Part shown: in pieces, positions 1 through 26,612 of the stretch
Position numbering within the stretch: position 1 is the stretch's first letter
How the letters are laid out: each line of letters starts with the position of its first letter
Assembly: GCF_047555085.1 (NCBI RefSeq)
Contig: NZ_CP180230.1
Coordinates: 810,001 to 842,000 of the forward strand
Source: Candidatus Saccharimonadota bacterium
Lineage (GTDB): Archaea; Nanohalarchaeota; Nanosalinia; Nanosalinales; Nanosalinaceae
DNA length: 32,000 bases
Reading direction: 5' to 3'
The notes under the pieces: generated by a model
Database searches by the model: none
Seen by the model: only the letters and a program-made list of their open reading frames with translations
Told to the model about the DNA's origin: nothing
Translations under genes and position numbers: made by a program

Positions 1-146
1 CAAGAATGATCGCAGTCTCAATGAAAAATCAGGACAGCAACAAGATCAACCTGACGATGAGACAGCCAGGCCTCGGAAAAGAGGAATGGATCGAACTTTA
101 CGAAGAAGAACAGGCAGAAGAAGACGACGAAGAAGGTGACAACTAG
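1..146 (+). CDS. rpoE: 3' end of RNA polymerase subunit Rpo7 (RpoE'); the 5' part lies outside the window
   Basis: The frame ending at TAG 144-146 reads ...RMIAVSMKNQDSNKINLTMRQPGLGKEEWIELYEEEQAEEDDEEGDN*. LTMRQPGLGK-EW matches the conserved C-terminal S1-domain end of archaeal Rpo7. It lies directly upstream of spt4, as in the conserved archaeal rpoE-spt4 arrangement. Confidence 0.65.
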   Translation, partial: RMIAVSMKNQDSNKINLTMRQPGLGKEEWIELYEEEQAEEDDEEGDN

Positions 147-148
147 AT

Positions 149-337
149 ATGGCAGAAAAAGCTTGTTCCGAATGCCACAGACTTGTAGAAGAGTCAACAG
201 AATGCCCTATCGACAAGAACAACGATTTAAGAAGTAACTGGAGCGGCTTAGCCGTTATATACGATCCAGAAGACTCAGAAATCGCAGACAAACTAGGCGT
301 AAGCGTCGCAGGACGATACGCGATCAGTGTAAGGTGA
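149..337 (+). CDS. spt4: Transcription elongation factor Spt4 (RpoE'')
   Basis: 62 aa. CSEC...ECPID zinc-ribbon-like N-terminus followed by NWSGLAVIYDPEDSEIADKLGVSVAGRYAISV, the typical Spt4 NGN-binding signature. Position after rpo7 fits. Confidence 0.8.
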   Translation: MAEKACSECHRLVEESTECPIDKNNDLRSNWSGLAVIYDPEDSEIADKLGVSVAGRYAISVR

Positions 338-348
338 AAAAATAATTT

Positions 349-789
349 ATGGAAGTTCAAATTGAATCAGTACGAGAAAATCCTCTTCTGGAACGCAGAC
401 AGGTAACACTGGCTGTAGACCATGAAGACGATTCAACCCCAAGTAGAGAAGATATCAAAAGCAGATTCGCTGCTGAAAACGCAGTCGACGAAGAAAAAAT
501 CGAAGTAGGCACAATCCACACAGGATTCGGCCGAAACTCTTCGAAAACAGAGCTTAAAGTCTACGAAGAATTCGATTACAGCGAAGATCTTGAAGAAGAG
601 GCCTCTACAACTTCAGAGACAGTTGAAGTAACTGAAGAATACGAGGAAATCGTCGCAGGAACAATCACAGATGCAAAAGACGCAATCAACGATCTTGAGG
701 ATCCTGACTACAAGGCCTTGATCGAGGCAGAAGTAGAGAACAAAAACCGCACAACACTAGTTGACTGGCTTGAAGGCCAGATGGAGTGA
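349..789 (+). CDS. rps24e: Ribosomal protein S24e (eS24) with an acidic C-terminal extension of about 70 aa
   Basis: The N-terminus MEVQIESVRENPLLERRQVTLAVDHEDDSTPSREDIKSRFAAE...IHTGFGRNSSKTELKVYEE matches the S24e family. It lies upstream of S27ae, as in the conserved S24e-S27ae pair. The tail (about 580-786) is extra. Confidence 0.85.
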   Translation: MEVQIESVRENPLLERRQVTLAVDHEDDSTPSREDIKSRFAAENAVDEEKIEVGTIHTGFGRNSSKTELKVYEEFDYSEDLEEEASTTSETVEVTEEYEEIVAGTITDAKDAINDLEDPDYKALIEAEVENKNRTTLVDWLEGQME

Positions 790-795
790 TTCAAG

Positions 796-942
796 ATGGG
801 AAAGAACGCTAACGTAGCAATCTACGAGAAGTACAACGAAGACGGGACATTCAACGGAGAAAAATGCCCTGTCTGCGGAAGCTTCCTGGCAGAACACGAC
901 GACAGGAAAAGCTGCGGCAAGTGCGGCTACACACAGCACTAG
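796..942 (+). CDS. rps27ae: Ribosomal protein S27ae (eS31), 48 aa; too short for the supplied ORF track
   Basis: Hand translation: [48 protein letters not shown]. It has the CPxCG...H.DR.SCGKCGY zinc ribbon typical of S27ae. ATG 796, TAG 940-942. Confidence 0.85.
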
Positions 943-1016
943 GGCCTCTAAATTTACAGGCCTCTCAATCTTTTCATCATATCTCTTAACGTTTTTCTCA
1001 CAAACATTTTCTCATA

Positions 1017-1997
1017 ATGAAAGTTCTTGGTATTGAGTCCACTGCTCATACGCTTGGAGTAGGGATAGTAGATGAGGATGATGTCCTTGCCAACAAGAAG
1101 TCGATGTACAAGCCTGAGGAAGGAGGTATTCATCCACGGAAGGCCTCAGAGCATCATTATCAGCATGCCTTGGAGGTATTGAATAATGCTCTTGATAAAG
1201 CGGGCCTTGAAGAGGAGGATCTGGATGCCGTGGCTTTTGCTCAGGGGCCTGGTATACCGCAGTGTCTGGAGATAGGGGCTGTTATGGCGCGGAGTATTGC
1301 GGAGCGTTACGATCTGAAGTTGATCGGTGTCAATCACTGTTTATCTCATATCTCGATCGGCACCAGAACGACTGAAGCTGAAAATCCGACTACGCTGTAC
1401 GTTTCTGGCGGGAACAGCCAGATAATCGAGTACAGGAATGGACGTTACAGGATAATTGGAGAGACTCTGGATATCGCTCTGGGAAATGCCTTGGACAAGT
1501 TCGCTAGAAAACTTGGATATCCGCATCCCGGCGGACCTGAGATCGAAAAGTTAGCGGAGAAGACTGACGATATAATTGAATTAAGTTATCCCATCAAGGG
1601 CATGGATTTCTCTTTTTCAGGCCTGACAACAGAGGCCGAGAGAAAGATCGGAGAAGTATCGGATGAGGTGCTTGCCAACAGTTTCCAGGAACACGCATAC
1701 TCTGCCGTGGTGGAGGCACTGGAAAGAGCGATGGCGCAGGAAGGCAGCAACGAGGCCCTTCTCACAGGAGGAGTAGCGATGAACTCCCGGCTTAGAGAGA
1801 TGGTGGAAACTATGTGCGAGCAGCGAGATGCAGAAGCTTACTTCCCTCCTGCCGAGTTCTGTATGGACAACGGAGCCATGATCGCACACCAGGGACTTGT
1901 TGAACTGAAAGACGGAAGAGGAACAAAGATAGATGATTCAGGTAAGAGGCCTGACTGGAGGCCTGACGAGGTGGAAGCAACATGGATAGAGAAATAG
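1017..1997 (+). CDS. kae1: Kae1, tRNA N6-adenosine threonylcarbamoyltransferase (KEOPS catalytic subunit), not fused to Bud32
   Basis: 326 aa. Has LGIESTAHTLGVGIV, VNHCLSHI (metal-binding His pair), LYVSGGNSQ and CMDNGAMIA motifs of the Kae1/TsaD/OSGEP family. Confidence 0.9.
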   Translation: MKVLGIESTAHTLGVGIVDEDDVLANKKSMYKPEEGGIHPRKASEHHYQHALEVLNNALDKAGLEEEDLDAVAFAQGPGIPQCLEIGAVMARSIAERYDLKLIGVNHCLSHISIGTRTTEAENPTTLYVSGGNSQIIEYRNGRYRIIGETLDIALGNALDKFARKLGYPHPGGPEIEKLAEKTDDIIELSYPIKGMDFSFSGLTTEAERKIGEVSDEVLANSFQEHAYSAVVEALERAMAQEGSNEALLTGGVAMNSRLREMVETMCEQRDAEAYFPPAEFCMDNGAMIAHQGLVELKDGRGTKIDDSGKRPDWRPDEVEATWIEK

Positions 1998-2571: not shown

Positions 2572-4233
2572 ATGGCTACAGGCTTTGAATCAATCGCACT
2601 GCTGATAGGTACAGCAACCCTGCTGGGAATCTTAGCACAGAAAACACACCAGCCGAAAGTCATAGCTTATATTCTGGCCGGCCTAGTCATGGGACCAGTA
2701 GGCCTGAGCATTGTTAGCGGAGGAGAGATGGTCAGCCTGTTTTCAGAGCTCGGACTTGTCTTTTTACTCTTTCTAATAGGCCTGGAAATCGATCTCGATG
2801 AAATCAGAGAAGTACTGGGATCAACTATCGGAATTGCAGTTATTCAGATGTTCCTAACTTTTCTTGCAGGCCTTGGAATAGCTACAGGCCTTGGATTTGA
2901 CACAGTCACAGCTGTATTTATCGGGGCGGCCGTGATGTTCAGTTCGACAGCGCTTGTAGTAAAAATACTTACGAAACGAGATGAGGCCTCTACACTTCCT
3001 GGACGGCTTGACGTAGGTGTTTTACTGGTACAGGATGTTGCTGTTGTTATAATACTTGCTTTACTTACTGTAAACTTCTCTGATCCTGTACAGGCAGGTA
3101 TAAAGCTTCTTGAAATATTCCTGATGATCTCAGTTGTCGGAGTTCTTTCTCTGGCCTCTTCAAGATATGTTTTTTCACGCGTACTGAAGAAAATATCAGG
3201 CAACTCTCTGGCATTCTTTACACACGGAGTTGCATGGGCCTTCCTGTTCATCACGATTGCAGATCACTTGAATCTTTCACTGGAGATCGGAGCTTTCCTG
3301 GCAGGAATCGGGATTGCACAGGTGCCTTACAGCCGGGAACTACAGGAAAGCGTAAGGCCTCTGACAGATCTTTTCATGGCTATATTCTTCATGAACTTCG
3401 GCATCAGTATCGCCGGAGGTTCAATCCAGCAGTATCTAGGAGAAGCAGTTATAGCGTCAGTACTGCTGATAGCTGCCAAGTTCATCATACTTTTCCTTAC
3501 CATCGACAGGTTCAAGTTCACTCCTGAAACCAGTTTCAAGGCCTCTGTGAATATGGGACAGATCAGCGAGTTCGGGCTTATACTGACAAGTCTGGCAGTG
3601 ACAGAAGGATACATAGACTCCGGTATCTCGGGCTTCATCAGCATGGTCGCTATCCTCACGATGGGAACTTCGGCATACCTGATCCGGTATAGAGACAGTC
3701 TTGAAGAGTTCTTCCATCCTGTACTCCGCTTCTTCCAGTCGGAGGCGAAACAGGACCTTGAAATCGAGAAACTGAATAATCACGCAGTGATAATAGGATA
3801 CGACGAAGTGTCAAGAAGAGTCTGCAGAGAGCTTTCAGAGGACTACAGGATACTTGTGATCGACAACAATCCGGATAACGTTGAGGAGCTTTCTGAATCA
3901 GAGTACAAATATATTTACGGCGATTTCAAACACGGCGAAATACGTAAAGGAGCCAATCTAGAGCAGGCAGACTTCATAATCAATTTCACAAGAGAAAAAG
4001 AGATCAACACCGTCCTACTGGAAGAGAGAAACGAGGATACAGTTGTAATAACAGAGACAAGAAGCTTTGAAGAGGCCTCTGAAATGTACGACCTGGGCGC
4101 AGACTACGTAATAATGGAGAACGTCCTGGCAGGCAACCGGATAAGCGAGTATCTTGAACTGTACCTTGAGGACAGAGATCTTTTCCTGGAGGAGATAAAG
4201 GACGATCTTGGCGATTCAAGCGATGAAAGTTAA
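2572..4233 (+). CDS. Kef-type CPA2 cation/proton antiporter with C-terminal RCK/TrkA-N-like domain (paralog 1)
   Basis: 553 aa. About 12 hydrophobic segments with Na_H_exchanger-type motifs (AYILAGLVMGP, ELGLVFLLFLIGLEID, GAFLAGIGIA). The cytoplasmic tail HAVIIGYDEVSRRVCRELSEDYRILVIDNNPDNVEEL is Rossmann-like. Confidence 0.85.
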   Translation: MATGFESIALLIGTATLLGILAQKTHQPKVIAYILAGLVMGPVGLSIVSGGEMVSLFSELGLVFLLFLIGLEIDLDEIREVLGSTIGIAVIQMFLTFLAGLGIATGLGFDTVTAVFIGAAVMFSSTALVVKILTKRDEASTLPGRLDVGVLLVQDVAVVIILALLTVNFSDPVQAGIKLLEIFLMISVVGVLSLASSRYVFSRVLKKISGNSLAFFTHGVAWAFLFITIADHLNLSLEIGAFLAGIGIAQVPYSRELQESVRPLTDLFMAIFFMNFGISIAGGSIQQYLGEAVIASVLLIAAKFIILFLTIDRFKFTPETSFKASVNMGQISEFGLILTSLAVTEGYIDSGISGFISMVAILTMGTSAYLIRYRDSLEEFFHPVLRFFQSEAKQDLEIEKLNNHAVIIGYDEVSRRVCRELSEDYRILVIDNNPDNVEELSESEYKYIYGDFKHGEIRKGANLEQADFIINFTREKEINTVLLEERNEDTVVITETRSFEEASEMYDLGADYVIMENVLAGNRISEYLELYLEDRDLFLEEIKDDLGDSSDES

Positions 4234-4288
4234 TAAAAAACGGAGAAAAGTACCGAAAGAATAGATCTGATTTAAGAGGCCTCAAAGT

Positions 4289-5974
4289 ATGATAGCTAAT
4301 ACAACGCTACCGGTGGAACTGACGCTTGTTATAGTGACAGCTACAGTTCTCGCCGTCGTTGCCAGAAAGCTGAAACAGCCTGTGCTTCTGGCTTATCTGC
4401 TTACAGGCCTTGTTCTTGGCCCTGCTCTCCTGAACATTGTCGGCGGCACTAGAACTCTTACTTTGATGTCGGAACTGGGCCTTGGTTTTCTTCTATTTCT
4501 TGTTGGTATCGAGATGAATCTTGATGAGATCAGGGATCTGCTTAAGCCCATATCTGTGATAGCTGTGGGACAGACGATACTTCAGACAGGTCTTGCCTTT
4601 GTAGTTCCTCTGGCTCTTGGATTCGGGTTTTTTGAAACAGTTATAATCGCTTTATGTACTGTTTTCGGTGCAACACCGGTAATTGTGAAGATTCTGACAG
4701 AAAAGGATGAGCTGAAGAGTCTGCCCGGGAAACTTGATGTTGGAGTGCTTGTTCTGCAGGACATATATCTTATCCTGATAGTGGCCTTGATCAACTCGGG
4801 CACCCTTACACAGCCAGATCAGATACTTGGTACACTGGCAAAGATAGTGGCCTTGATCGGTGTTATAGGAGTTATCTCTCTGGCTTCTTCACGCTACATA
4901 CTTGACGATATCTTCAAGCAGATAGCTGACAACCGGCATGCATTCTTCATACACGGAGTTGCATGGGCCTTCCTGTTCATCACACTGGCAGAGTTCATGG
5001 GACTGTCTGTCGAGGTAGGTGCATTCCTGGCAGGCCTTGGTCTTGGACAGATACCTTACAGAGAGGAGATAAAGGAGCGTATAAGGCCTCTGACGGATTT
5101 CTTCATGGTTATATTCTTCTCTACACTGGGCCTGACACTGTCAGTCGAGAATCTTCAGGCTTACTGGGTTGAGGCAATTTTGGCTTCCGGTGTCATGATG
5201 ATAGGGAACTTCGTGATAATGTTTTACCTGATTGACAGGATGAAGTTCACGCCGAGGACATCGTTCATAGGCAGCATCAATATGACACAGGTCAGCGAGT
5301 TCTCACTTGTTGTAGGAGCGCTGGCTGTCCAGCAGGGCTATATCGGGAACGACGTACTTGGATACATCAGTTTGATGGCGGTTTTCACGATTGGTCTTTC
5401 GACTTACCTGATTAACTATAACAAGGAGATTTACCAAAAAATTGAACACCTGCTTGAATGGCTGGAATCGGAGGAGAAGAAAGACGTGGAGATTAACCAG
5501 CTGGAAGATCATGCAGTGATTGTTGGATACGATGAGATTTCAGAGAAAATCTGCAGAACGCTTGAAAGAGAACATGATATACTCGTGATAGACCAGAACC
5601 CCGACAACACAGAAGTATTGAGCCGTTCACCGTACGAGTACATCTACGGAGACTTCAAACACGGCGAAATACGGGAAGGAGCAAATCTCGAGGGAGCAGA
5701 GTTCATAATCAGTTTCTCGGATGAAAAAGACGTCAACCTGAAAGTACTGGAAGAGCAGACAGATAACGCCATAAAGATAGTAACAGCTAAACGACTCGAA
5801 GAGGCCTCTGAAATGTACGACCTGGGCGCAGACTACGTAATAATGGAGAACATCCTGGCAGGCAACAGGATCGGAGAGTACCTGGAACTATACCTCGAGG
5901 ACAGAGAGCTCTTCAGAGAGGAAGTGAAATCTGAAATCAAACATATCAAAGGTGAAGAACGATCTCAGAACTGA
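4289..5974 (+). CDS. Kef-type CPA2 cation/proton antiporter with RCK-like domain (paralog 2)
   Basis: 561 aa, collinear with paralog 1 over its full length by eye. Same motifs (AYLLTGLVLGP, ELGLGFLLFLVGIEMN, GAFLAGLGLG, HAVIVGYDEISEKICRTLEREHDILVIDQNPDN). Confidence 0.85.
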   Translation: MIANTTLPVELTLVIVTATVLAVVARKLKQPVLLAYLLTGLVLGPALLNIVGGTRTLTLMSELGLGFLLFLVGIEMNLDEIRDLLKPISVIAVGQTILQTGLAFVVPLALGFGFFETVIIALCTVFGATPVIVKILTEKDELKSLPGKLDVGVLVLQDIYLILIVALINSGTLTQPDQILGTLAKIVALIGVIGVISLASSRYILDDIFKQIADNRHAFFIHGVAWAFLFITLAEFMGLSVEVGAFLAGLGLGQIPYREEIKERIRPLTDFFMVIFFSTLGLTLSVENLQAYWVEAILASGVMMIGNFVIMFYLIDRMKFTPRTSFIGSINMTQVSEFSLVVGALAVQQGYIGNDVLGYISLMAVFTIGLSTYLINYNKEIYQKIEHLLEWLESEEKKDVEINQLEDHAVIVGYDEISEKICRTLEREHDILVIDQNPDNTEVLSRSPYEYIYGDFKHGEIREGANLEGAEFIISFSDEKDVNLKVLEEQTDNAIKIVTAKRLEEASEMYDLGADYVIMENILAGNRIGEYLELYLEDRELFREEVKSEIKHIKGEERSQN

Positions 5975-5988
5975 TTAACGTACTGACT

Positions 5989-7608
5989 ATGGTATTTGTA
6001 GCATCATCAATAGTACTTTTCCTGTTCGACAGATTCTCGCATCCTGCTCTGCCAGCGTATATAATCGCAGGAGTTATCGTAGGAAACTTCTTCCCGGCAG
6101 ATGAAATGATAAACTTCACTCAGATAGGCCTCTCATTCCTTGTATTCATATTCGGAGTAAAGATGGATCCGGAAAGACTGAAATCAGTAGCCGGAGACGG
6201 CCTCAAGACCGCTGCAGTCCAGATAACAGCAGTATCAGTTCTTGCAGTAGGCCTCTCCATGATAATGAATCTTTCAGGATTCGAGACGCTTGTTTTCGTC
6301 CTGGCAACTGCATTGAGCTCTACTCTTGTAGGACTTGACTTGCTGGAGAAAGAGATCGATCTGAAGCTGGCGCACGGACGTCTTGCGGAGTCGATCCACT
6401 TGAGTCAGGATCTTATCGCTGTAATGTTCCTGATGATACTGGGAGCATCAGCTTTCACATTTGAAGCAGTCTCACAGAGCTTTATCCATGGATTTGGCGT
6501 GCTAGCTCTTGCACTTCTATTCAGAAAGTATGCTCTCGATCATCTTGCTGATCTTACAGAGAACTCCCGTGAGCTACTGATGCTTGTATCCATAACTATA
6601 CTGATCGGCTTCCTGGGCCTGACCGAATACTTCCAGATTTCGCTCGCTATCGGAAGCTTTGCAGCAGGCCTCGCCGTCTCAAAGTATCCGCACAACATGG
6701 AAATCCTTGATACAACAGGATCGCTTAAAGATTTCTTCTCGGCAATCTTCTTCGTCTCCCTAGGTGCTCTGCTAACAGTTCCAACACCACAGGTACTGAT
6801 AATGTCCGCAGTAATGCTTGTACTGACAGTTATAGGCAAGCCGTTCGCAGTCATCACCTCTCTTGTCGCCCTGGGGCAGAACAAACGTACAGCATACCTT
6901 ACAGGATTCAGCATCGATCAGGTCTCTGAATTTGCACTTATAATAACAATACAGGCCTATATTTCAGGCCTGATAGGCGGAACAGTTTTCCAGGCCGTTA
7001 TAATAACAGCTACAGTCTCAATGATGATATCATCCTATACAGCAAAGCATGGGGACAGGATATACAATCTGCTGTCCGAACATGATCATATAGAGGCCTT
7101 TGGAGATAAAGAGGAGAGATCGAAGCACAATCTGGAGGATCACGTTATCGTTGTAGGCCACGATACTCAGGGAAAGAGAATCATCGAGACTTTGCGTGAT
7201 GAAGAAAAAGAATACATCGTGATAGACAACGATCCTGAGAAAGTTACAGATCTGAAGGAGAAAGGTGAGAACTTCGTCTTCGGGGACGTTATGGAGATAG
7301 ATACATGGGAACGTGCAGATTACCGTGAGGCCTGTCTGATAATATCCACAGTCCCTCTAGAGAAGACTTCAAGAAAGATTCTATCCCTTCCAACAGATGC
7401 GGACAAGATACTGAGAAGTGAAGATATAGAGGAGGCTGAAAAGCTGCTGGAAGATGGTGCGATCTACGTTAACGTGCCTGAAGTACTGAGCGCCGAACTT
7501 CTTCCGGATCATATCGAAGGCCTGATGGAGAACAGGCGTTACAGAGAGGATCTCAGGAGACGGAACATGCTGGAGGTAAGGAAGTACCTGCAGAATCTTG
7601 AAGGATGA
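5989..7608 (+). CDS. Kef-type CPA2 cation/proton antiporter with RCK-like domain (paralog 3, more diverged)
   Basis: 539 aa, multi-TM, with AYIIAGVIVG, GSFAAGLAVS and a C-terminal HVIVVGHDTQGKRIIETLRDEEKEYIVIDNDPEKV Rossmann-like segment. Confidence 0.8.
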   Translation: MVFVASSIVLFLFDRFSHPALPAYIIAGVIVGNFFPADEMINFTQIGLSFLVFIFGVKMDPERLKSVAGDGLKTAAVQITAVSVLAVGLSMIMNLSGFETLVFVLATALSSTLVGLDLLEKEIDLKLAHGRLAESIHLSQDLIAVMFLMILGASAFTFEAVSQSFIHGFGVLALALLFRKYALDHLADLTENSRELLMLVSITILIGFLGLTEYFQISLAIGSFAAGLAVSKYPHNMEILDTTGSLKDFFSAIFFVSLGALLTVPTPQVLIMSAVMLVLTVIGKPFAVITSLVALGQNKRTAYLTGFSIDQVSEFALIITIQAYISGLIGGTVFQAVIITATVSMMISSYTAKHGDRIYNLLSEHDHIEAFGDKEERSKHNLEDHVIVVGHDTQGKRIIETLRDEEKEYIVIDNDPEKVTDLKEKGENFVFGDVMEIDTWERADYREACLIISTVPLEKTSRKILSLPTDADKILRSEDIEEAEKLLEDGAIYVNVPEVLSAELLPDHIEGLMENRRYREDLRRRNMLEVRKYLQNLEG

Positions 7609-12443: not shown

Positions 12444-12526
12444 AACAAAAGGCCTCCACCACATATCACACAAAACTTTTCTTCCTCCACGCCCAGACAG
12501 GCCTCAGAAAAGGCCTGAAAAACTCT

Positions 12527-12654: not shown

Positions 12655-13233
12655 TTAATCAGCCTCTCCAAATCTATGCCCTTCCTCTATCATGGACTCA
12701 TCTAGAGCAATCTTTCTACCTATCTTTTCCGTAATTTTCTCTATATCTCTCTCAAGAATCAGATTTGACTCTTCTATCGCTCCAAAAAGGAAGTAAAAAC
12801 TTGAGAAAAGTAGAATAGAACCCAGGATCCTATTTACAAAAATAAAATCTGGAATTACAGAATTTAAACTCAGTAGAGATCCAATTAAACCACTAAACTG
12901 CCTAGATTTCAAAGCAAATAGTATTATATGGTGAGTAAGTATGACACCAGCAACAATCAATGAAACAGAAGCAATCTGGAATTTTTTCTTACTCTCAGAG
13001 CTATGACCACCAGAATAAGCTAAATTTAGTGAGAAAGCACCCATACTGAGAAATCCTAGAGCTATTGTGCCGACATATGAAGATACAAAACTTGGAATAC
13101 CAAGAGCAAAATAAAGCGCCGCAGAAGTAATCAAGAGATAAGTCAAACTAGAACTCCAGAGATACATCCCTCCTGCAAAATAAATATGAAATCCAATATG
13201 ATTCCTAAACCAGCTATAGATTTCCCTTAACAT
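12655..13233 (-). CDS. Hypothetical polytopic membrane protein in an AT-rich block
   Basis: 192 aa with about 5 hydrophobic segments and a short acidic tail. No recognisable family. Composition differs from its neighbours. Confidence 0.5.
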   Translation of the reverse strand: MLREIYSWFRNHIGFHIYFAGGMYLWSSSLTYLLITSAALYFALGIPSFVSSYVGTIALGFLSMGAFSLNLAYSGGHSSESKKKFQIASVSLIVAGVILTHHIILFALKSRQFSGLIGSLLSLNSVIPDFIFVNRILGSILLFSSFYFLFGAIEESNLILERDIEKITEKIGRKIALDESMIEEGHRFGEAD

Positions 13234-14647: not shown

Positions 14648-15241
14648 CTATTTCTTTGTTGCTATAAAGTTCATGAATCCTGGCTGATCTCCTTCTCTTT
14701 CCGTCACTTCCACCCTGTGTATTTCAAAGTCCTGAAGCATTTGACGTGCTTTTTCTTCAGTCATTGGATACTGTGCGACAGATGAACCGTATTTTTCTCT
14801 GATGAACTTTCCTTTTCCTTTCTTCAGGCCCAGGAACAGTGTGCCTCCGGATTTCAGGACTCTGGAAAGCTCGCTGAAGGCCTTTCTTCTTTCTTCGCCT
14901 TTGAAGAATACAAGCAGTTGATTTACCAGAACAGCGTCGAACGATGCATCATCGAAATCCAGATCACGGACATCCATGACGTGGAAGTCTCCTGATTTCT
15001 TTTCCGCAATTTCTATCATTTCTTCGGAGAGATCAACACCTGTAACATCGAATCCTTTATCTGAGAGAAGTTGTGAGTCTCTTCCAGGCCCGCATCCTGC
15101 ATCAAGAACTTTACCATTCTGTGCTTTCTCGATAAAGGCCTCTAGAAGTTCTATATACTCTTCGGAAATATTTTGGATAGAGTAGTTTTCGGCGAATTTT
15201 TCTGCTCCTTTCGAGTAAAAATTTGAGGCCTCTTCAGTCAT
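14648..15241 (-). CDS. Class I SAM-dependent methyltransferase
   Basis: 197 aa. Motif I VLDAGCGPGRDS, an acidic post-I residue (VTGVDLSEEM) and FDAVLVNQLL. Its start ATG overlaps the msrB stop (ATGA). Confidence 0.8.
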   Translation of the reverse strand: MTEEASNFYSKGAEKFAENYSIQNISEEYIELLEAFIEKAQNGKVLDAGCGPGRDSQLLSDKGFDVTGVDLSEEMIEIAEKKSGDFHVMDVRDLDFDDASFDAVLVNQLLVFFKGEERRKAFSELSRVLKSGGTLFLGLKKGKGKFIREKYGSSVAQYPMTEEKARQMLQDFEIHRVEVTEREGDQPGFMNFIATKK

Positions 15242-15960: not shown

Positions 15961-16167
15961 GGGAGAACGGTTTTCTACTTGAAAATTTTTATACGGTGTC
16001 CAGCAGAGGCCTCTCAGCGTTTCCGGTCGAAAGGTTTCTGCAGGTTTTTACGCAAGGTTTTAAGGCCTTGTACAGGGTTGTGGGGTATAGGGTGTGGGAG
16101 GCCACACACCCTTTTAAAGTTTGACGGTCTATTCGGGAATTATACGCATTAACAGGTGATACAAAAA

Positions 16168-17454
16168 ATGGCTGATAAACCACACATTAATCTAGTATTC
16201 ATTGGACACGTTGACCACGGTAAGTCTACCACTATTGGACGACTTCTGTGGGATACAGAAAACCTACCGGAAGAAGAGATGCGCAAGCTTGAGGATGCTG
16301 CTGAGGAAGCAGGTAAGGATACCTTCGGTTTCGCGTTTGCTATGGACTCGCTTGAGGAAGAGCGTGAGAGAGGAGTTACTATTGACCTTGCTCACAAGGA
16401 ATTCGACTCTGAAAACTACTTCTTCACGATTATCGATGCTCCAGGGCACCGTGACTTCATTAAGAACATGATCACAGGAGCTTCTCAGGCTGACGCCGCA
16501 GTTCTTGTCGTCGCTGCAGACGACGGAATTCAACCTCAGACCAAGGAGCATGCTTACCTTGCCAAGACTCTTGGAATCGACCAGATGGTCGTCGCCGTCA
16601 ACAAGATGGATCTCGCTGACTACGAAGAAGATGGTTACGAGGACATCAAGGGCGAAGTTTCCGAGATGCTTGGAGGCGTAGGTTACAATACAGACGATAT
16701 CGACTTTGTACCTATCTCTTCCTTCCACGGAGAAGGCGTCGCAGAGCTTTCAGACGAGATGGGATGGTACGAAGGACCAAGCCTACTCGATGCACTTGAC
16801 GATCTTGAAGAACCTGAAAAACCTATCGATCTTCCGCTCAGAGTTCCTATTCAGGACGTCTACAAGATCTCCGGAATCGGAGCAGTTACAGTCGGAAGAG
16901 TCGAGACAGGAGACATCGCACAGGGCGACAACATCAAGTTCGAACCTGCATCCACACGACTTAACAAGAACATCGGTGGAGAAGTCAAGACGATCGAGAT
17001 GCACCACGAAGAAGTTGAAGAAGCAACACCTGGAGACAACATCGGATGGAATACAAGAGGAGTCGGACAGGACGACGTCAAGAAAGGAGACGTCGCAGGA
17101 CCTTCCGACAACCCACCTACAGTTGTCGAAAGCTTCGAGGCACAGATCATCGTCCTCAACCACCCTAACGTCATCTCCGAGGGATACACACCAGTATTCC
17201 ACGTCAACACAGCACAGGTTTCATGCACCTTCAGCGACCTGAAGAAGACCATGAATCCAAAGACAGGAGAGACAATCGAAGAAGACCCAGACTACATCAA
17301 ACAGGGTCAGGCAGCAATCGTGGAAATCATTCCACAGCAGCCACTAGTCATCGAATCCAACGATGACAACCCACAGATGTCCCGTTTCGCAGTCAGAGAC
17401 ATGGGACAGACAGTTGGAGCCGGACAGGCCCTATCTGTCACAGAGAAAGAATAG
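16168..17454 (+). CDS. tuf: Translation elongation factor aEF-1alpha
   Basis: [21 protein letters not shown] (G1), DAPGHRDF (G3), NKMD (G4). The track start GTG 16156 lies inside a Shine-Dalgarno-like AGGTGAT (16154-16160). The ATG at 16168 is 8 nt downstream of it, so I prefer it. Confidence 0.95.
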
Positions 17455-17475: not shown

Positions 17476-17509
17476 GAGAGGCCTTCAAAGGCCTCTCACA
17501 CATATTTTT
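17476..17509 (+). terminator. Hairpin plus T-run downstream of tuf
   Basis: GAGAGGCC-ttcaaa-GGCCTCTC forms a perfect 8-bp stem (17476-17497), followed by a TTTTT run at 17505-17509. The stem is built from two AGGCCT copies. Confidence 0.45.
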
Positions 17510-17600: not shown

Positions 17601-17609
17601 ATTTAAAAG
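17601..17609 (+). promoter_or_regulatory. TATA box (ATTTAAAAG) for rps10
   Basis: Centred about 28 nt upstream of ATG 17633, consistent with a leaderless transcript. Confidence 0.45.
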
Positions 17610-17632
17610 AATTAACTGTAGAATAGTTTTCT

Positions 17633-17941: not shown

Positions 17942-17968
17942 ATTTCTTCACTCCTTAATTTCTGGAAC

Positions 17969-18325
17969 ATGCAGGACGAAGTGATCAGCGGCTACGATAA
18001 AGCCGAACACTACAGTTCTTCTATCCAACTTGACAGAGGCCTTGAAGCCGATATAACAGTTTTTACTGTTTACAGGGATGCTGAAGGCGATCTTGATGAA
18101 GAGTTCCAGATGATTGAATATATTTTCAGCCGGGATGTCTCCAGAGGCCTTGAAAAGTTCCGTGAGCGAGCGGAAGAGTTTTCTGATTACCGTTTCTTCC
18201 CGATAATAGGGGATCACAGAGCACCTTCAGAGGCCACTGTGATGATTAACGACGATGATAGAGTGGAGGTTGCGGAGTTTGCCGAGGAACTGATCGAAGA
18301 GGTTCACTCGGAGATAGGTCTTTAG
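17969..18325 (+). CDS. Hypothetical acidic protein
   Basis: 118 aa with acidic composition matching this genome. No family recognised. Confidence 0.45.
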   Translation: MQDEVISGYDKAEHYSSSIQLDRGLEADITVFTVYRDAEGDLDEEFQMIEYIFSRDVSRGLEKFRERAEEFSDYRFFPIIGDHRAPSEATVMINDDDRVEVAEFAEELIEEVHSEIGL

Positions 18326-18418
18326 AACCTCTCCTAATTTAAAACTTCCAAGAAACTATTCAATTATAGAGGCCTCTCAACTTTGAGGCCTTGACTTAAG
18401 CAAATACATAGAGTATTT

Positions 18419-18505
18419 GCCGGGATGACAGAGTGGCTAATTGTGCCGGTCTTGAGAACCGGTGACCCATATGCGGTCTCCTGGGTTCAAATCCCAGTCC
18501 CGGCG
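18419..18505 (+). tRNA. tRNA-Ser (anticodon UGA), class II with long variable arm
   Basis: Acceptor GCCGGGA/TCCCGGC, anticodon stem CCGGT/ACCGG with loop CTTGAGA (anticodon TGA), a long variable arm, T arm CTGGG-TTCAAAT-CCCAG, discriminator G. Confidence 0.85.
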
Positions 18506-18580
18506 TTTCACGCCTTTTCTGGGATTTTTCAAATCGACGAAAATCTTAGATTTTCTGGAGACACAGAAGCTTGTCAGAGC

Positions 18581-19087: not shown

Positions 19088-20245
19088 ATGGCAGCAGGCC
19101 TGGCAGCTCAGACAATGTACGAACTGGGTATCCTTCTATTCCTTTCGTTTATAGTCGGAGAGATATTTGAAAGAGTTGGAATAGAATCCATAATCGGATA
19201 CATTGTTACAGGCCTGATAATGGGGCCTTCAGTACTTGGCATGATAGAGGCTGAGGCTGTTAAAGGATTTGCAACAATCGGTGCTTCTCTAGTACTTTTC
19301 CAGGCAGGCTTGAGGGAGGAGAACGCTGTTAAAATTTTCAGGCACAGGCAGGGCCTGCAGCTAGGTATCGGAGTTCTTCTTGGAGCTTTTGCCTTCATCT
19401 TCGGAATGTTGATGCTTTTTGGAGAGACTTTCCTTCCTTACAGCGACTTGACGGCTTTCGTATATCTTGCACTGGGATATGCAATCGTTGACATCGGTGT
19501 ACCGTCTAAGATCATGCTTTCGAAGGGTATGATGCGTGAGCCGACAGGCAAGTATGCGATCAAGTCCTCAGTGATCAATGTAACAGTAGGATTGCTTGCT
19601 GTTACAGGCCTTGTAATTCTTAACTCATCAGCTGAAACGATGCTTCTGAAGATTGCAGGAATCTTCGGATTCGCAGCAGGATTCTACGTGCTTCACGAGT
19701 TCATCCACAGACTTGATGACTATATAATGATGTTTGAAGAGGCCGAGGCACAGTTCGCGATAACTTTCTCCCTGCTGCTAGGCCTCAGTTATGCTACAGA
19801 GATAATAGGCCTCTCTACAGTTCTTGGAGCGTTCTTCGCAGGTATAATCGTTTCAAGAAGTGATTTCTCTGATTCACGTGCCTTCCAGGAGAAGATTCAG
19901 GCCATCGGATTAGGCCTTTTCATCCCTATTTTCTTTGCATGGTTCGGACTGGGCCTTCATCTTGACAGCATCATCGCTAACTTCGGTGCAGCAGCCTTCC
20001 TTTTCGGGCTTTCAACGGTTTCAAAGATATCGATCGGATACGTTATGTCTCGGCTTCACGGCATGGATAAGCCTATGACTGTGGCGGCCTCTCTACTGAG
20101 TCTTGATATCGAGACGCTTGTAGTACTGTTGATCGGTATCGATATGGGTATCTTTGGGAATGAAATCCTTCAGATATTCGCTCCTTCGGTCCTGCTTTCC
20201 ACAGCAACTATCGTTATTCTCTATGCTGTGCTTGAAAGGATGTAG
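19088..20245 (+). CDS. CPA2-family cation/proton antiporter, membrane domain only (no RCK)
   Basis: 385 aa, polytopic, with GYIVTGLIMGPSVLG and GAFFAGIIVS motifs of the Na_H_exchanger family. It begins 7 nt after the CBS gene. Confidence 0.78.
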   Translation: MAAGLAAQTMYELGILLFLSFIVGEIFERVGIESIIGYIVTGLIMGPSVLGMIEAEAVKGFATIGASLVLFQAGLREENAVKIFRHRQGLQLGIGVLLGAFAFIFGMLMLFGETFLPYSDLTAFVYLALGYAIVDIGVPSKIMLSKGMMREPTGKYAIKSSVINVTVGLLAVTGLVILNSSAETMLLKIAGIFGFAAGFYVLHEFIHRLDDYIMMFEEAEAQFAITFSLLLGLSYATEIIGLSTVLGAFFAGIIVSRSDFSDSRAFQEKIQAIGLGLFIPIFFAWFGLGLHLDSIIANFGAAAFLFGLSTVSKISIGYVMSRLHGMDKPMTVAASLLSLDIETLVVLLIGIDMGIFGNEILQIFAPSVLLSTATIVILYAVLERM

Positions 20246-21640: not shown

Positions 21641-21713
21641 CAGTCATCTCATAGAGGAGAAGACTGAAATTGAAAATCCTGAGGATTTTCAGCTTACACG
21701 CAGGGAAACAGAT

Positions 21714-21786
21714 AGCCCCCTGGTGTAGTGGCCAATCATGAGAGGCCCTGGCCCTCTCGACGCAGGTTCGAATCCTGCGGGGGCTA
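21714..21786 (+). tRNA. tRNA-Gln (anticodon CUG), with an atypical anticodon loop
   Basis: Acceptor AGCCCCC/GGGGGCT with A73, and the A1-U72 pair typical of archaeal tRNA-Gln. Anticodon stem AGAGG/CCTCT with loop CCCTGGC. T arm GCAGG-TTCGAAT-CCTGC. It aligns column by column with the Gln-UUG gene at 23874. Confidence 0.7.
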
Positions 21787-21850
21787 AATACTTTTTCTGT
21801 ACAGTTTGTCGCGGATAGTTTCAAAAGACAGGCCTTCCAATCTAGGTTCT

Positions 21851-23285: not shown

Positions 23286-23825
23286 ATGAAGGATCTGGAA
23301 GAATTTTTCAACGATATCAACGAATTAAAGCATACCGAAAGAGAGGGATGGAAAGATGTAGTTGACAGGCCTCGCGACACGATCGCATCCCACAGCTTCG
23401 GCGCCGCATTACTAGGCTGGGCGTTGTCGGAGAAAGAAGGCCTTGAATCGGATAAAATCGTCAAGATGCTTCTGATGCATGACTTGATAATGGCATACGT
23501 TGAAGATTTTACTCCGGAAGATGAAGAGTTTGATTCGAAGAAAGAGATGGAAAGAGAGGCCTCGGAGAGACTTTTCAACGATATTCCTGATGAGATCGAG
23601 GACGAGTTCAGAGATCTTTTCCACGAGTTGCAGGAACAGGAAACTGAGGAAGCAAGATTTGCGAAGGAGTGCGACAAACTGGATACGCTTTTCCAGGCCT
23701 CAAAGTACTCTGAAGAAACAGGCGAGGATCATCTCAGAGAGTTTCTGGATTTCTACAGGGAGAATTTTGAAAGCGATACAGGAAAGAAAGTTTTCAGCAG
23801 TCTCGAACAGAAAAGTTTCGAATAG
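23286..23825 (+). CDS. HD-domain phosphohydrolase (YfbR-like 5'-nucleotidase type)
   Basis: 179 aa. REGW...RPRDTIASHSF...LLMHDL...D pattern (H...HD...D). Confidence 0.72.
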   Translation: MKDLEEFFNDINELKHTEREGWKDVVDRPRDTIASHSFGAALLGWALSEKEGLESDKIVKMLLMHDLIMAYVEDFTPEDEEFDSKKEMEREASERLFNDIPDEIEDEFRDLFHELQEQETEEARFAKECDKLDTLFQASKYSEETGEDHLREFLDFYRENFESDTGKKVFSSLEQKSFE

Positions 23826-23873
23826 GCCTGAGTATTTCTTAAGAGTTGAAGCGATAAAGACTGTATAACGGAT

Positions 23874-23946
23874 AGCCCCGTAGCATAGTGGTCAAGTGCA
23901 CCAGCCTTTGGAGCTGGCGACCCCGGTTCGAATCCGGGCGGGGCTA
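23874..23946 (+). tRNA. tRNA-Gln (anticodon UUG)
   Basis: Acceptor AGCCCCG/CGGGGCT with A73, anticodon stem CCAGC/GCTGG with loop CTTTGGA, T arm CCCGG-TTCGAAT-CCGGG. Confidence 0.85.
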
Positions 23947-23989
23947 ACCTGAAAAAGTGGTTTAAGATTGAGGCCTCTACTTCTTTTCT

Positions 23990-24268
23990 ATGGGAGACGA
24001 AATACGTGCATCACACATTCTAGTCGATAACGAAGAACACGCTAAACAGATCAAGCTTGACTTGGACAGGACTGACAAAAGCTTTGCTGAACTGGCCAAG
24101 GAGAAAAGTGAAGGCCCTTCCGGAGACAACGGTGGAGATCTCGGTACTTTCGGCAGAGGGAAGATGGTGCCTGAGTTCGAGAAAGTTGCCTTTGATCTCG
24201 ACGTTGATGAAGTCAGCGATCCTGTTGAGACAGAGTTCGGATGGCATATAATCAAGCGGACAGAATAG
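23990..24268 (+). CDS. Parvulin-type peptidyl-prolyl cis-trans isomerase (PpiC/PinA-like)
   Basis: 92 aa. IRASHILV...[39 protein letters not shown]...[16 protein letters not shown]. Confidence 0.85.
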
Positions 24269-24317: not shown

Positions 24318-24348
24318 TTTAACGAGGATTTAGGTGTTACGAGTTATC

Positions 24349-24831
24349 ATGTCAGAGACACGTGAAGTTGTAAGGATTGCAAGAACCGGTATCGATGGAA
24401 ATAAACCTGTCGAGAAGGCCTTGACTGGTCTTAAAGGTATTGGTGAGATGTATGCCAATGCTGTGGCTGAGTCAATGGATTTAAAGAATACTATAATCGG
24501 AGGCCTCTCTGATGAGGAGATCGACGAGATTGAAGAGGCCATCAAGAATCCTGATGATCTTGAGCTTCCTAGCTGGATCAGAAACAGGAGAAAGGACAGG
24601 GATACCGGAGAGAATCTTCACTTGATTGAATCTGATCTTGAGCTGAAGAAGGAGTTCGATATCAGACGTCTCAAAGATATCGATTCATACAAGGGTTGGA
24701 GACACGATATCGGTCTACCGGTTCGTGGACAGAAGACACAGTCTTCATTCAGAAGTGGAAGCAAGATCGGTGTTTCACGTGCAAGACTTCAGGAAGAAGC
24801 CTCTTCAGGCGGAGACGGCGAAGAGGAATAG
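24349..24831 (+). CDS. rps13: Ribosomal protein S13 (uS13)
   Basis: VRIARTGIDGNKPVEKALTGLKGIG...YKGWRHDIGLPVRGQKT. The track starts at GTG 24334. I prefer ATG 24349 because of the TATA position. Confidence 0.9.
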   Translation: MSETREVVRIARTGIDGNKPVEKALTGLKGIGEMYANAVAESMDLKNTIIGGLSDEEIDEIEEAIKNPDDLELPSWIRNRRKDRDTGENLHLIESDLELKKEFDIRRLKDIDSYKGWRHDIGLPVRGQKTQSSFRSGSKIGVSRARLQEEASSGGDGEEE

Positions 24832-24846
24832 AGGTGACACAATAAA

Positions 24847-25392
24847 ATGGTAAAGAAGCTTAAGAAACAGTACGAAACTCCCTCAGAAGCATGGGATGAA
24901 GAAAGGATTGAAAAAGAGAAGGAATTAATCGAAGAATTCGGACTTTCGAACAAGAGGGAAGTTTACAAGGCAGAAAGTGAATTGAGAGGCCTCAGAAGAC
25001 AGGCCAGGAAGGCTGTTGCTTCCGACAAGGAAGATCAGAAGAAGCCTCTACTTGATAAGGCTCACAGGCTTGGATTGATCAAGTCTGACGGCGAGATTGT
25101 TGACATCCTTTCACTTGAGACACGGGATATTCTGAACAGGAGACTTCAGTCTGCTGTTGAGAGAAAAGGATTTGCAGATACTCCAAAGCAGGCCCGTCAG
25201 CGTGTTGTACACGGGCATATCTACTTGAACGGTGAAAGAGTTACTGTTCCTGGCTACCTGTTGACTCAGGAAGAGGAGAAGAATCTTGAGCTTCAGATGC
25301 CGGAGCAGGAAGATGAAGAAGAGGCCTCTGAGGAAGCAGAGGAAACTGAAAATTCAGAAGAAGTTGAAGAAGAATCAGAGGAGGAAGAATAA
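24847..25392 (+). CDS. rps4: Ribosomal protein S4 (uS4) with poly-acidic C-terminal tail
   Basis: KKQYETPSEAWDEERIEKEKELIEEFGL.NKREVYKAES, and an S4 RNA-binding domain (LQSAVERKGFADTPKQARQRVVHGHIYLNGERVTVPGYL). GAGGTGA Shine-Dalgarno-like motif upstream. Confidence 0.9.
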   Translation: MVKKLKKQYETPSEAWDEERIEKEKELIEEFGLSNKREVYKAESELRGLRRQARKAVASDKEDQKKPLLDKAHRLGLIKSDGEIVDILSLETRDILNRRLQSAVERKGFADTPKQARQRVVHGHIYLNGERVTVPGYLLTQEEEKNLELQMPEQEDEEEASEEAEETENSEEVEEESEEEE

Positions 25393-25395
25393 TTT

Positions 25396-25779
25396 ATGAC
25401 TAAGAAAGGTATTGTTCACATCTACTCAAGTTTCAACAACACGATCGTACACATCACTGATGCTACCGGTGCAGAGACTTTCTCCCGGATTACATCAGGT
25501 ATGACAACTGACAAGGGCCGTCTTCAGGGAAGTGCTTTCCCTGCCATGAAGGCTGCTAAACAGGCAGTTGAAGAGGCCAAGGAGAAAGGTATCGAGAAGC
25601 TTGATATTCAGGTAAGAGGGCCTGGTGGTCAGAAGCAGAAGATGCCTGGTCGAGGAGCTCAGCCAGCTATCCGTGCTATCTCCAGAAGCGATCTGGAAGT
25701 TGGAAACATTGAGGATGTTACTCCTGTCCCTCACGATGGATGCCGTCCAAAAGGCGGTAAAAGAGGAAGGAGAGTATAA
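25396..25779 (+). CDS. rps11: Ribosomal protein S11 (uS11)
   Basis: [24 protein letters not shown] and a C-terminal [21 protein letters not shown]. Confidence 0.9.
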
Positions 25780-25791
25780 GAGGGTTTCAGC

Positions 25792-26364
25792 ATGAACGTT
25801 GAAACAGTAGAGGAAAACGACGATGTTCTGAAGTTGAGAGTTGAAGGCGTAGATGAAGCAGTAGCTAATGCTCTACGCAGATCGATGATTACAAAGGTTC
25901 CAACTCTTGCAGTCAAACACCTTGAAGTTTCAAGGAATGATTCAGGCCTCTTCGACGAAGTAATCGCCAATAGGGTAGGACAGATTCCTTTCACAATACC
26001 AGAAAATGTTGAAGAAGACGACGAAGTTCACGTAGCTATTTCTCAGGAAGGTCCTGGGAAAGCTGTCGCAGGAGACATTCAGGCCGACAACGATGAAGCC
26101 GAGCCTGTTAATCCTGGCGCTGAGATAGTTAGCCTGAAGGAAGATCAGGCACTGGAGTTTGAAGGAGTAGCTGTACTTGGCCGGGGAGATGAACACGCCA
26201 AGCATCAAGGAGGAACAGTTGGATACGAGAAAGTTGAAGATGGTGAATACATCTTCCGAATCGAGTCCACTTCCGGCTACAGCAACACCGAACTCTTCAA
26301 CGAGGCAATCAATCAAGTTCAGAACGAGCTTGAAGAGTTTGAAGACTTCGTCTCAGATCTTTAA
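25792..26364 (+). CDS. rpoD: RNA polymerase subunit D (Rpo3), short 190-aa form
   Basis: LKLRVEGVDEAVANALRRSMITKVPTLAV, NDSGLFDEVIANRVGQIPF, GRGDEHAKHQ, FRIESTSGY. Conserved position after rps11. Confidence 0.85.
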   Translation: MNVETVEENDDVLKLRVEGVDEAVANALRRSMITKVPTLAVKHLEVSRNDSGLFDEVIANRVGQIPFTIPENVEEDDEVHVAISQEGPGKAVAGDIQADNDEAEPVNPGAEIVSLKEDQALEFEGVAVLGRGDEHAKHQGGTVGYEKVEDGEYIFRIESTSGYSNTELFNEAINQVQNELEEFEDFVSDL

Positions 26365-26612
26365 TTCTTATTTAACTCTTCCTTAATTCTCCTATAATTC
26401 TTATCTGCTTATAGGCCTTTTTCTACTACAGTACAGCATTTTGCACAGGCCTTGGTCGAAAAGACACATCCAGAAAGGGTATCGGATAGGTTTTATATAC
26501 AGGCCTTTCGAACAATTGTATAACAGGCTGGAAGCGTCAAATCTTACGGTGATTTTATCACTTGCATTTAGTGATTTTTGGCTTCCAGGATATCAATCGG
26601 TAATGGGTAAAC

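Follow-up and report, generated by a model that had tools for sequence, protein, structure and literature searches.

The window analysed here, a 32,000-nt stretch of nanohaloarchaeal (DPANN) DNA, was modelled with 35 coding sequences (CDS) and contained the hexamer AGGCCT 113 times (3.5/kb), more often than any other hexamer (runner-up GAAGAA, n = 73). Its proteins were archaeal, among them Kae1, Sua5, Bud32, S15, S3Ae, EF-1alpha, S13/S4/S11, RpoD and Kef-type antiporters, and the proteome was acidic. The closest loci among GTDB genomes and metagenomes all belonged to Nanohaloarchaea, with no more than 88% protein identity. AGGCCT is palindromic, so its sites have no strand. A preliminary description of the window had arrived at about 113 sites, which is the exact number, and every site position it gave was correct to within 1 base. 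The sites start at the following positions.

AGGCCT starts, first part: 68, 599, 713, 958, 1141, 1619, 1947, 1959, 2132, 2700, 2778, 2868, 2886, 2984, 3355, 3539, 4073, 4277, 4405, 5032, 5084, 5802, 6126, 6249, 6666, 6953, 6966, 7094, 7328, 7518
AGGCCT starts, second part: 7666, 7999, 8089, 8116, 8226, 8277, 8342, 8760, 9134, 9245, 9551, 9594, 10013, 10080, 10193, 10541, 10663, 10925, 11048, 11719, 12014, 12450, 12499, 12511, 12640, 13614, 13670, 14482, 14878
AGGCCT starts, third part: 15136, 15226, 15735, 15788, 15893, 16007, 16063, 17479, 17489, 18037, 18145, 18370, 18386, 18873, 19096, 19210, 19606, 19780, 19807, 19912, 20246, 21155, 21434, 21830, 21957, 22312, 22375, 22653
AGGCCT starts, fourth part: 22738, 22834, 22957, 23065, 23203, 23280, 23367, 23438, 23557, 23695, 23824, 23971, 24295, 24416, 24501, 24987, 25322, 25944, 26413, 26447, 26501, 28510, 28597, 28634, 29734, 29876

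Dinucleotide-preserving shuffles of the window gave an expectation of 6.7 sites (sd 2.6, maximum 14) and an observed-to-expected ratio (O/E) of about 17, in line with the roughly 14-fold excess over about 8 expected sites in the preliminary description. Markov expectations were 6.5 (order 1), 21 (order 2), 53 (order 3) and 107 (order 4). The order-4 value is N(AGGCC) × N(GGCCT)/N(GGCC), or 152 × 144/205; of these 205 GGCC, 113 sat inside AGGCCT. A count within 2-fold of the maximal-order Markov expectation had been named beforehand as a reason to discard the excess; the two values do lie that close, yet the near-match is circular and uninformative, because the sub-words are abundant only through AGGCCT itself. 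When AGGCCT was masked before an order-2 background was built, O/E was 13.3 for the pooled enriched genomes described below and 1.1 for their neutral relatives. The excess of AGGCCT over expectation was thus about 13- to 17-fold in the window and in some of its relatives, and no other palindromic hexamer of the window came near its level.

The second most over-represented palindromic hexamer of the window was AAATTT (27 copies, 8.1 expected), with 14 coding copies and 13 noncoding copies (950, 7613, 11822, 11865, 12651, 13257, 13414, 13468, 15983, 17515, 22248, 24271 and 24315). Five of the 13 noncoding copies lay 19–34 nt upstream of start codons within T/A-rich runs, and the noncoding copies look like promoter (TATA-box region) elements.

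Codon choice, protein composition and site spacing

AGGCCT occurred in all three coding phases and in spacers, as the preliminary description had stated. The CDS held 90 sites, 9 as AGG-CCT, 35 as xAG-GCC-Txx and 46 as xxA-GGC-CTx; a further 23 lay in 3.1 kb outside CDS, at a density of 7.4/kb compared with 3.1/kb in coding DNA. One example that had been given for each phase was verified.

1947..1964, + strand: two in-frame AGG-CCT (Arg-Pro), phase 0, in the KRPDWRPDE stretch of kae1; 9 of 10 Arg-Pro in the window are so written
599..604, + strand: GAG-GCC-TCT (E-A-S), phase 1, in the ribosomal protein S24e gene (349–789), previously given as EEEAS
2886..2891, + strand: ACA-GGC-CTT (T-G-L), phase 2, in the first Kef-type antiporter gene (2572–4233)

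Permutation of synonymous codons within each gene (500 trials) yielded 14.7 sites (sd 3.5, maximum 27), compared with the 90 observed. Amino-acid and codon usage, the other possible full cause raised at the outset, therefore did not explain the excess. With the giant open reading frame (ORF) at the end of the window excluded, 85 of the 127 peptide contexts able to encode AGGCCT synonymously were occupied (67%), made up of Arg-Pro contexts in the AGG-CCT phase (9/10), [EKQ]-A-[SLFYCW] contexts (32/45) and x-G-L contexts (44/72). Codon choice depended on context: GGC made up 75% of Gly codons in compatible contexts and 20% elsewhere, GCC 85% and 22% of Ala codons, and AGG 90% and 18% of Arg codons, respectively. 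In noncoding DNA, AGGCCT (n = 23) outnumbered its 18 one-mismatch variants combined (n = 16); random sequence would give a ratio of approximately 1:18. These data support a bias that acts on the DNA word and not on the protein.

The ordinary genes of the window encoded 127 compatible peptides versus 77.5 ± 8.5 after residue shuffling within each protein, and none of 300 shuffles reached 127. In orthologous segments of enriched lineages, the observed and expected numbers were 47/23.5, 29/16.2, 20/12.2 and 26/15.4 (O/E 1.6–2.0), whereas those of neutral relatives were 47/43.9, 28/29.4, 30/28.5, 27/27.9, 15/14.4 and 25/22.0 (O/E approximately 1.0). In the comparison with the neutral related locus L002, compatible contexts private to the window numbered 23, of which 19 were occupied, and those private to L002 numbered 8. 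Between the window and the enriched locus L018, 10/13 and 11/16 private contexts were occupied, and comparisons between enriched clades had private contexts mostly occupied on both sides. As the compatible-peptide excess was confined to enriched lineages, the DNA-level force reshapes proteins. The context-dependent codons, the 67% occupancy and this peptide excess bear out the DNA-level force that the preliminary description had read from the use of every phase. AGGCCT was shown to be near saturation where coding allows, including amino-acid replacements at tolerant positions. The AGGCCT-driven excess of x-Gly-Leu, [EKQ]-Ala-[SLFYCW] and Arg-Pro affects analyses of codon usage, of the ratio of nonsynonymous to synonymous substitution (dN/dS) and of phylogeny in these organisms.

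The distribution of the sites was as uneven as described previously: tuf had none, no AGGCCT occurred within 12646–13613, the first site of the acidic-protein gene was at 21155 and the giant ORF had five. An exemption of particular genes, however, was not upheld.

16156..17454, + strand: tuf (EF-1alpha), no sites, one compatible peptide context
26613..32000, + strand: giant ORF, at least 1796 aa, running off the window, 5 sites in 7 compatible contexts
12655..13233, − strand: ORF of 192 aa, GC content 35% (window average 45%), no AGGCCT, one compatible context

The gaps reflect a lack of opportunity, and no gene class was exempt. The S11 gene, hyp192 and the acidic-protein gene had one compatible context each, and msrB, hyp142 and the rotamase gene had none. 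The giant ORF, unlike other genes, had no excess of compatible peptides (7 versus 9.9 expected). An exemption of highly expressed genes was likewise rejected, lack of opportunity being the better account. The giant ORF carried a DUF2341 domain, matched CarboxypepD_reg weakly and probably encodes a giant surface protein of the sort known from nanohaloarchaea. The 192-aa ORF, possibly acquired recently, matched no Pfam family and had no homologue in the related loci.

The spacing of sites was random-like (coefficient of variation (CV) 0.95), and selection for regular spacing was rejected on this basis. Nine pairs lay within 36 nt of each other among the 113 sites, compared with our Poisson estimate of approximately 11. 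A hairpin or terminator function was rejected, close pairs being no commoner than site density predicts, and because of this agreement the hairpins at 12498–12517 and 17476–17497 look incidental. No AGGCCT lay inside any of the four tRNA genes. Three of the four were bracketed by AGGCCT within 10–50 nt.

12498..12517, + strand: two AGGCCT separated by 6 nt (C-AGGCCT-cagaaa-AGGCCT-G) that could fold into a 7-bp hairpin, just upstream of tRNA-Lys
12640: single AGGCCT just downstream of tRNA-Lys
17476..17497, + strand: GAGAGGCCT-tcaa-AGGCCTCTC, two sites that could pair into a 9-bp stem around a 4-nt loop, in the spacer separating the convergent tuf and ORF 17542–17970
18370..18391, + strand: AGGCCT pair 10 nt apart, upstream of tRNA-Ser
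23824..23976, + strand: AGGCCT at 23824 and 23971, flanking tRNA-Gln (23873–23949) on both sides
tRNA genes: Lys-CTT 12526–12601, Ser-TGA 18418–18506, Gln-CTG 21713–21787, Gln-TTG 23873–23949

Other genes of the window included three tandem Kef-type K+/H+ antiporter paralogues (2572–7608; Na_H_Exchanger and TrkA_N) between kae1-sua5 and bud32, and a fourth Na+/H+ exchanger (19088–20245) after a CBS-domain gene. The Kef paralogues of the related locus L001 were only 39–45% identical to the window copies, while adjoining genes were 64–88% identical. A 92-aa ORF upstream of S13 (23990–24268) encoded a PPIC-type peptidyl-prolyl isomerase.

Related lineages and the GGCC core

High AGGCCT density recurred in independent assemblies from NCBI, JGI and ENA. 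Syntenic loci fell into three states.

High, 3.2–4.6 AGGCCT/kb: the window, L001, L018, L025/26, L012/28 and L034
Intermediate, 1.1–2.0 AGGCCT/kb: L003 (complete genome M3_22, CP046106), L019/20 and L013/29
Neutral, approximately 0.3 AGGCCT/kb: L002, L007, L014 (Nanosalina J07AB43), L011, L006, L021 and others

In a bootstrapped neighbour-joining tree of a single gene, that of the DHH protein (200 replicates), the enriched loci (1–4.6 sites/kb) formed three well-supported clades and one unplaced lineage, with neutral lineages interleaved. Bootstrap support was 100% for the window with L001, 100% for L003 with L019, 99.5% for L013 with L025 and L028, and 100% for L002 with L016 and L017. Monophyly of the enriched lineages was recovered in 0/200 bootstrap trees. 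From this topology, the trait has been gained or lost several times. No replacement palindromic hexamer was enriched in the neutral genomes. Loci L003, L019 and L020 had approximately 7 GGCC/kb and only approximately 1.9 AGGCCT/kb, with 70 AGGCCN and 63 NGGCCT half-sites versus 72 full sites; the trait could be decaying or young there, or its specificity relaxed.

Conservation at orthologous sites, a check that had been proposed at the outset, was found between the window and L001. The two were 57% identical at 4-fold sites, yet 19 of the 21 occupied window sites at common contexts were shared (Fisher p = 5e-4), and the sites are therefore maintained. Occupancy in the window was statistically independent of that in the enriched clades other than that of L001. 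Related loci were either at least 99.4% or only approximately 75% identical, with no pair of an intermediate divergence that would allow recent substitutions to be polarised.

The GGCC core of the word was nearly absent from some sister lineages. Locus L030 (L030:1-21356; SL_4KL_010_BRINEDRAFT_10000092) had 1 GGCC in 21.4 kb versus 17.5–25.7 expected, and no other 4-bp palindrome was nearly as depleted in it; its sister L011 had 35. L016 and L017 together had 2 GGCC in 7.3 kb versus 8.4–9.3 expected, and their sister L002 had 38; both sister loci were at expectation for GGCC. Judged by these counts, L030 is a lineage that has purged GGCC by ordinary restriction-site avoidance, and the same probably holds for L016/L017. 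That the same tetranucleotide is purged in some lineages and forms the core of an amplified word in others is unlikely to be a coincidence; the shared core suggests that restriction-modification-type enzymes specific for a GGCC core circulate in the group. On a separate nanohaloarchaeal contig (L024:1-7066), CTAG occurred 5 times versus 24.5 (order-1) or 11.1 (order-2) expected. CTAG is the target of a widespread haloarchaeal orphan N4-methylcytosine (m4C) methyltransferase.

Total GGCC reached 5.7–7.8/kb in enriched loci versus 2.1/kb in neutral ones. Most GGCC of the enriched clades lay within AGGCCT, the half-sites AGGCCN and NGGCCT were also enriched, and GGCC flanked by neither A nor T occurred at 0.46–0.62/kb versus 0.79/kb in neutral genomes. 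Against the masked order-2 background, variants at the outer bases were over-represented (GGGCCT/AGGCCC, O/E 4.15; transversion variants at the first and last base, 1.45 and 1.41), and inner one-mismatch variants had an O/E of 0.73–1.09. Variants therefore build up at the outer A/T, which is looser, but not in the GGCC core. The hexamers of L002 aligned to AGGCCT were diverse (AGGACT, AGGAAT, AGGTCT, AGGCTT and others), and T-variants were not dominant among them. A cross-genome depletion of AGGTCT/AGACCT (0.36 of neutral relatives) was discarded, as it was lost under the internal background and was largely compositional.

In the window, AGGCCT tended towards the palindromic extension A-G-AGGCCT-C-T, where 50% of all sites had A at −2, a share that rose to 67% in noncoding DNA, and 44% had G at −1. 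L001 had this flank preference in weaker form, and L018, L025 and L028 lacked it. Beyond ±2–3 nt base frequencies were at background, and a dispersed repeat or miniature inverted-repeat transposable element (MITE) was rejected because no conserved sequence extended past that distance.

A scan of viral contigs (IMG/VR) for triple AGGCCT sites gave mostly chance matches and tandem repeats. A few contigs had dispersed enrichment, with non-acidic, non-halophile proteins (ORFs of L122 and L124 examined): L122:1-10794 had 22 AGGCCT in 10.8 kb at 52% GC, L037:1-3639 had 13 in 3.6 kb at 36% GC and no ORF of at least 150 aa, and L115:1-4978 had 8 in 5 kb at 36% GC. AGGCCT hyper-abundance may occur in hosts beyond nanohaloarchaea.

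A proposed fixation bias, rival explanations and known systems

As far as sequence comparison can tell, these results showed that in certain nanohaloarchaeal lineages a sequence-specific, DNA-level fixation bias favours the creation of AGGCCT and works against the loss of its GGCC core. We find it quite possible, if a little short of probable, that this bias is methyltransferase-linked and of the kind behind the cyanobacterial highly iterated palindromes (HIPs), which comprise HIP1 (GCGATCGC) and alternate palindromes (Elhai 2015, PMC4390886; NAR 2018, PMC5861425). In the mechanism that we infer, the putative agent would be a lineage-specific, horizontally mobile DNA-modification function, in its likeliest form a methyltransferase that recognises AGGCCT or the GGCC core and is coupled to repair. 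Repair of mismatches within or beside a hemimethylated site would favour the methylatable strand, a ratchet such as Elhai proposed for cyanobacterial HIPs; gains would be fixed at up to twice the mutation rate, and core losses would be reverted. Lineages without the modification function would remain at expectation or drift back to it, lineages under GGCC restriction without such protection would purge GGCC, and the half-site-rich intermediate clade would fit a weaker, younger or lost activity. The ratchet would fit the data because one-off neighbours were undepleted, the core was protected and spacers were densest.

A search for methyltransferase genes, recommended in the preliminary description, yielded none: no ORF of the window or of 35 related loci of approximately 20 kb had a C5 or N4/N6 DNA-methyltransferase signature in motif scans, and Pfam and PADLOC scans of the hypothetical proteins of the window gave no DNA methyltransferase. 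Homology searches with M.HaeIII (query verified against PDB 3UBT/1DCT) returned only close bacterial homologues among the matches listed. One methyltransferase gene of another kind was present.

14648..15241, − strand: class I S-adenosylmethionine (SAM) methyltransferase, 197 aa, between msrB and a hypothetical gene, matching the SAM-binding part of PADLOC 'mad2' (E = 6e-24)

It was rejected as the agent, being a generic class I enzyme with 72% identity in both the enriched L001 and the neutral L002. According to a REBASE-based survey, M3_22 (L003, intermediate state) has exactly one orphan type II methyltransferase, predicted to be m4C, and no Vsr (PMC10609329). M3_22 is the only complete genome among the enriched lineages, and its orphan methyltransferase is a lead and not a test.

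Several points weigh against a methyltransferase-coupled ratchet. The window and approximately 500 kb of related loci yielded no gene for a DNA methyltransferase, a Vsr or a mismatch glycosylase, and the M3_22 enzyme is predicted to be m4C, with no Vsr listed for that genome. T-variants were not clearly depleted (AGGTCT/AGACCT 0.97, AGGCTT/AAGCCT 0.87; neutral 1.12 and 1.13), so the main route is not a simple T:G-to-C:G repair drive. The DHH tree resolved neither its deep nodes nor the position of L018, and several gains or one ancient gain with repeated loss are equally possible. Even for HIP1 the ratchet model is unproven, and site-by-site selection predicts identical sequence statistics.

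Such selection would operate if AGGCCT were an individually useful tag for a lineage-specific DNA-binding protein, with a role in uptake or transfer or in self-marking or recombination, resembling the uptake signal sequences (USS) of Pasteurellaceae, the DNA uptake sequences (DUS) of Neisseriaceae or Chi, or in chromatin or segregation; selection or an uptake-plus-recombination drive would then multiply the tag. We regard this as unlikely. A tag predicts the saturation of synonymous opportunities equally well and is consistent with the reshaped peptides (USS are known to reshape peptides in Pasteurellaceae), with the sites conserved between the window and L001, and with inverted pairs after genes (e.g. 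17476–17497). The random-like spacing (CV 0.95) and the lack of a close-pair excess, however, give no sign of selection for regular coverage or hairpins. The 10-bp palindromic flank preference, strongest in noncoding DNA, would fit a dimeric DNA-binding protein, but the extension is missing from other enriched clades and no candidate reader protein was identified. Recent work ties HIP1 to transformation efficiency and type IV secretion. Known uptake signals are 9–12 nt long and non-palindromic, a 6-mer would give little specificity against GC-rich host DNA, and a tag leaves the purging of the GGCC core in sister lineages unexplained.

An escape from GGCC restriction, in which a methyltransferase protects only AGGCCT and unprotected GGCC is removed or converted to AGGCCT, seems improbable to us. 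Restriction pressure on GGCC exists in the group (1 GGCC in 21 kb of L030), and the somewhat lower frequency of GGCC flanked by neither A nor T in enriched lineages (0.46–0.62/kb versus 0.79/kb), together with the residence of most GGCC in AGGCCT, is what an escape would leave behind. Conversion cannot make an excess, however: total GGCC is approximately 3-fold higher in enriched loci (5.7–7.8 versus 2.1/kb), most cores being new, and the half-sites AGGCCN and NGGCCT are enriched, not purged. Lineage-private amino-acid changes yield whole new sites, and the comparison with L002 suggests that most AGGCCT arose where no GGCC stood.

We consider very improbable a classical very-short-patch (VSP)-type repair, with a 5-methylcytosine (m5C) methyltransferase on (A)GGCC(T) and Vsr- or Mig-like T:G repair turning AGGTCT/AGGCTT into AGGCCT. 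Archaea offer a precedent of GGCC methylation with a T:G glycosylase (M.MthTI with Mig.MthI), and the inner C/G positions do not accumulate variants. The crude cross-genome ratio of AGGTCT/AGACCT (0.36 of neutral relatives) would also agree, but on the masked background the T-variants are at expectation, and the aligned L002 hexamers are diverse and not T-variant-dominated. VSP-linked enrichment in Escherichia coli is far below 13-fold, and M3_22 has no listed Vsr and a methyltransferase predicted to be m4C. Trivial causes are already refuted, whether the usage of amino acids, codons or codon pairs, a dispersed repeat or MITE, or an artefact of assembly or adapters: the maximal-order Markov value of 107 near the observed 113 and the commonness of Gly-Leu in the many membrane proteins of the window stand against 14.7 sites in synonymous shuffles versus 90, neutral orthologues with the same proteins at approximately 0.3/kb, the highest density in noncoding DNA, flanks not conserved past ±2 and recurrence in independent NCBI, JGI and ENA assemblies.

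An extension of the HIP-type, methyltransferase-linked bias is that a mobile modification-and-repair (or reader) module acts in DPANN as a genome-writing drive, with thousands of hexamer copies and a rewritten proteome; we hold this to be possible, albeit somewhat doubtful. If true, a gene-content contrast between neighbour genomes of approximately 1 Mb could reveal the HIP-making machinery, sought for three decades for HIP1. The interleaved enriched, neutral and core-purging lineages constitute a natural experiment for finding the responsible gene or genes. StuI and HaeIII digestion or methylation are predicted to differ sharply between lineages, and AGGCCT density is a strong signal for binning and host assignment in hypersaline metagenomes. 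A literature search returned no paper linking AGGCCT to nanohaloarchaea, in agreement with the earlier statement that the phenomenon had not been described for this kind of archaeon; among the papers retrieved on over-represented palindromes, none described a hyper-abundant one in archaea, and an archaeal restriction-modification survey and nanohaloarchaeal methylome papers did not mention AGGCCT abundance.

Among known systems, the cultured Ca. Nanohalococcus occultus SVXNc has active GDGCHC methylation, with only 140 sites in its genome, 138 of them methylated (PMC11001535, PMC10266531). Avoidance of GDGCHC is a case from this phylum with a short palindromic target of the same class, and L030 and L016/L017 behave in this way for GGCC. 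The window has the opposite sign, with massive AGGCCT enrichment. USS and DUS are 9–12 nt long, non-palindromic and dependent on competence receptors, occur at approximately 1/kb and are attributed to molecular drive. AGGCCT resembles them in using all frames and tolerant protein positions, in reshaping peptides, in forming inverted pairs behind genes and in being lineage-specific. It differs as a 6-nt palindrome with weak, lineage-specific flanks and no uptake machinery tied to it; neither a non-palindromic 9–12-mer nor an excess of inverted terminator pairs was found. In E. coli, Dcm methylation and very-short-patch repair by Vsr shape CCWGG/CTWGG frequencies by turning CTWGG into CCWGG, a modest effect with a depleted T-variant. 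There, too, a repair bias at methylation sites raises its own palindrome at the DNA level and in all frames, but AGGCCT is approximately 13-fold enriched with T-variants at expectation, and no Vsr gene is known in these genomes.

Cyanobacterial HIPs are GC-rich palindromes at approximately 0.5–2.5/kb or more, 15- to 300-fold over expectation (PMC4390886, PMC5861425), and one-mismatch variants of HIP1 deviate mainly at the first and last base, outside the CGATCG core (Elhai, PMC4390886). AGGCCT is a word of this type and shares their hallmarks: it is the top word at no less than 0.5/kb, is used in all frames and noncoding DNA, and has outer-base variants, extensions and conserved sites. The parallel to HIP1 drawn in the preliminary description thus extends to word frequency, phases, the bias of variants to outer bases outside an inner methyltransferase-type core, and lineage-specific palindromic extensions. 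Both words occur in genes and spacers with a patchy distribution among related genomes, and methyltransferase-linked repair bias or selection has been proposed for both. AGGCCT differs in being a hexamer with a GGCC core, whereas HIP1 is an octamer with a CGATCG core; it is denser (3.2–4.6/kb), its spacing is random-like where that of HIP1 is quasi-periodic, and its cognate methyltransferase is only putative. Nanohaloarchaeal relatives without the enrichment use no other palindrome in its place, the core is purged in sister lineages, and the host is an archaeon (DPANN, Nanohaloarchaeota). To our knowledge, hyper-abundant palindromes are known essentially from cyanobacteria, where their origin is still unexplained; AGGCCT adds an independent instance from archaea, one built on another word and found in tiny symbiont genomes.

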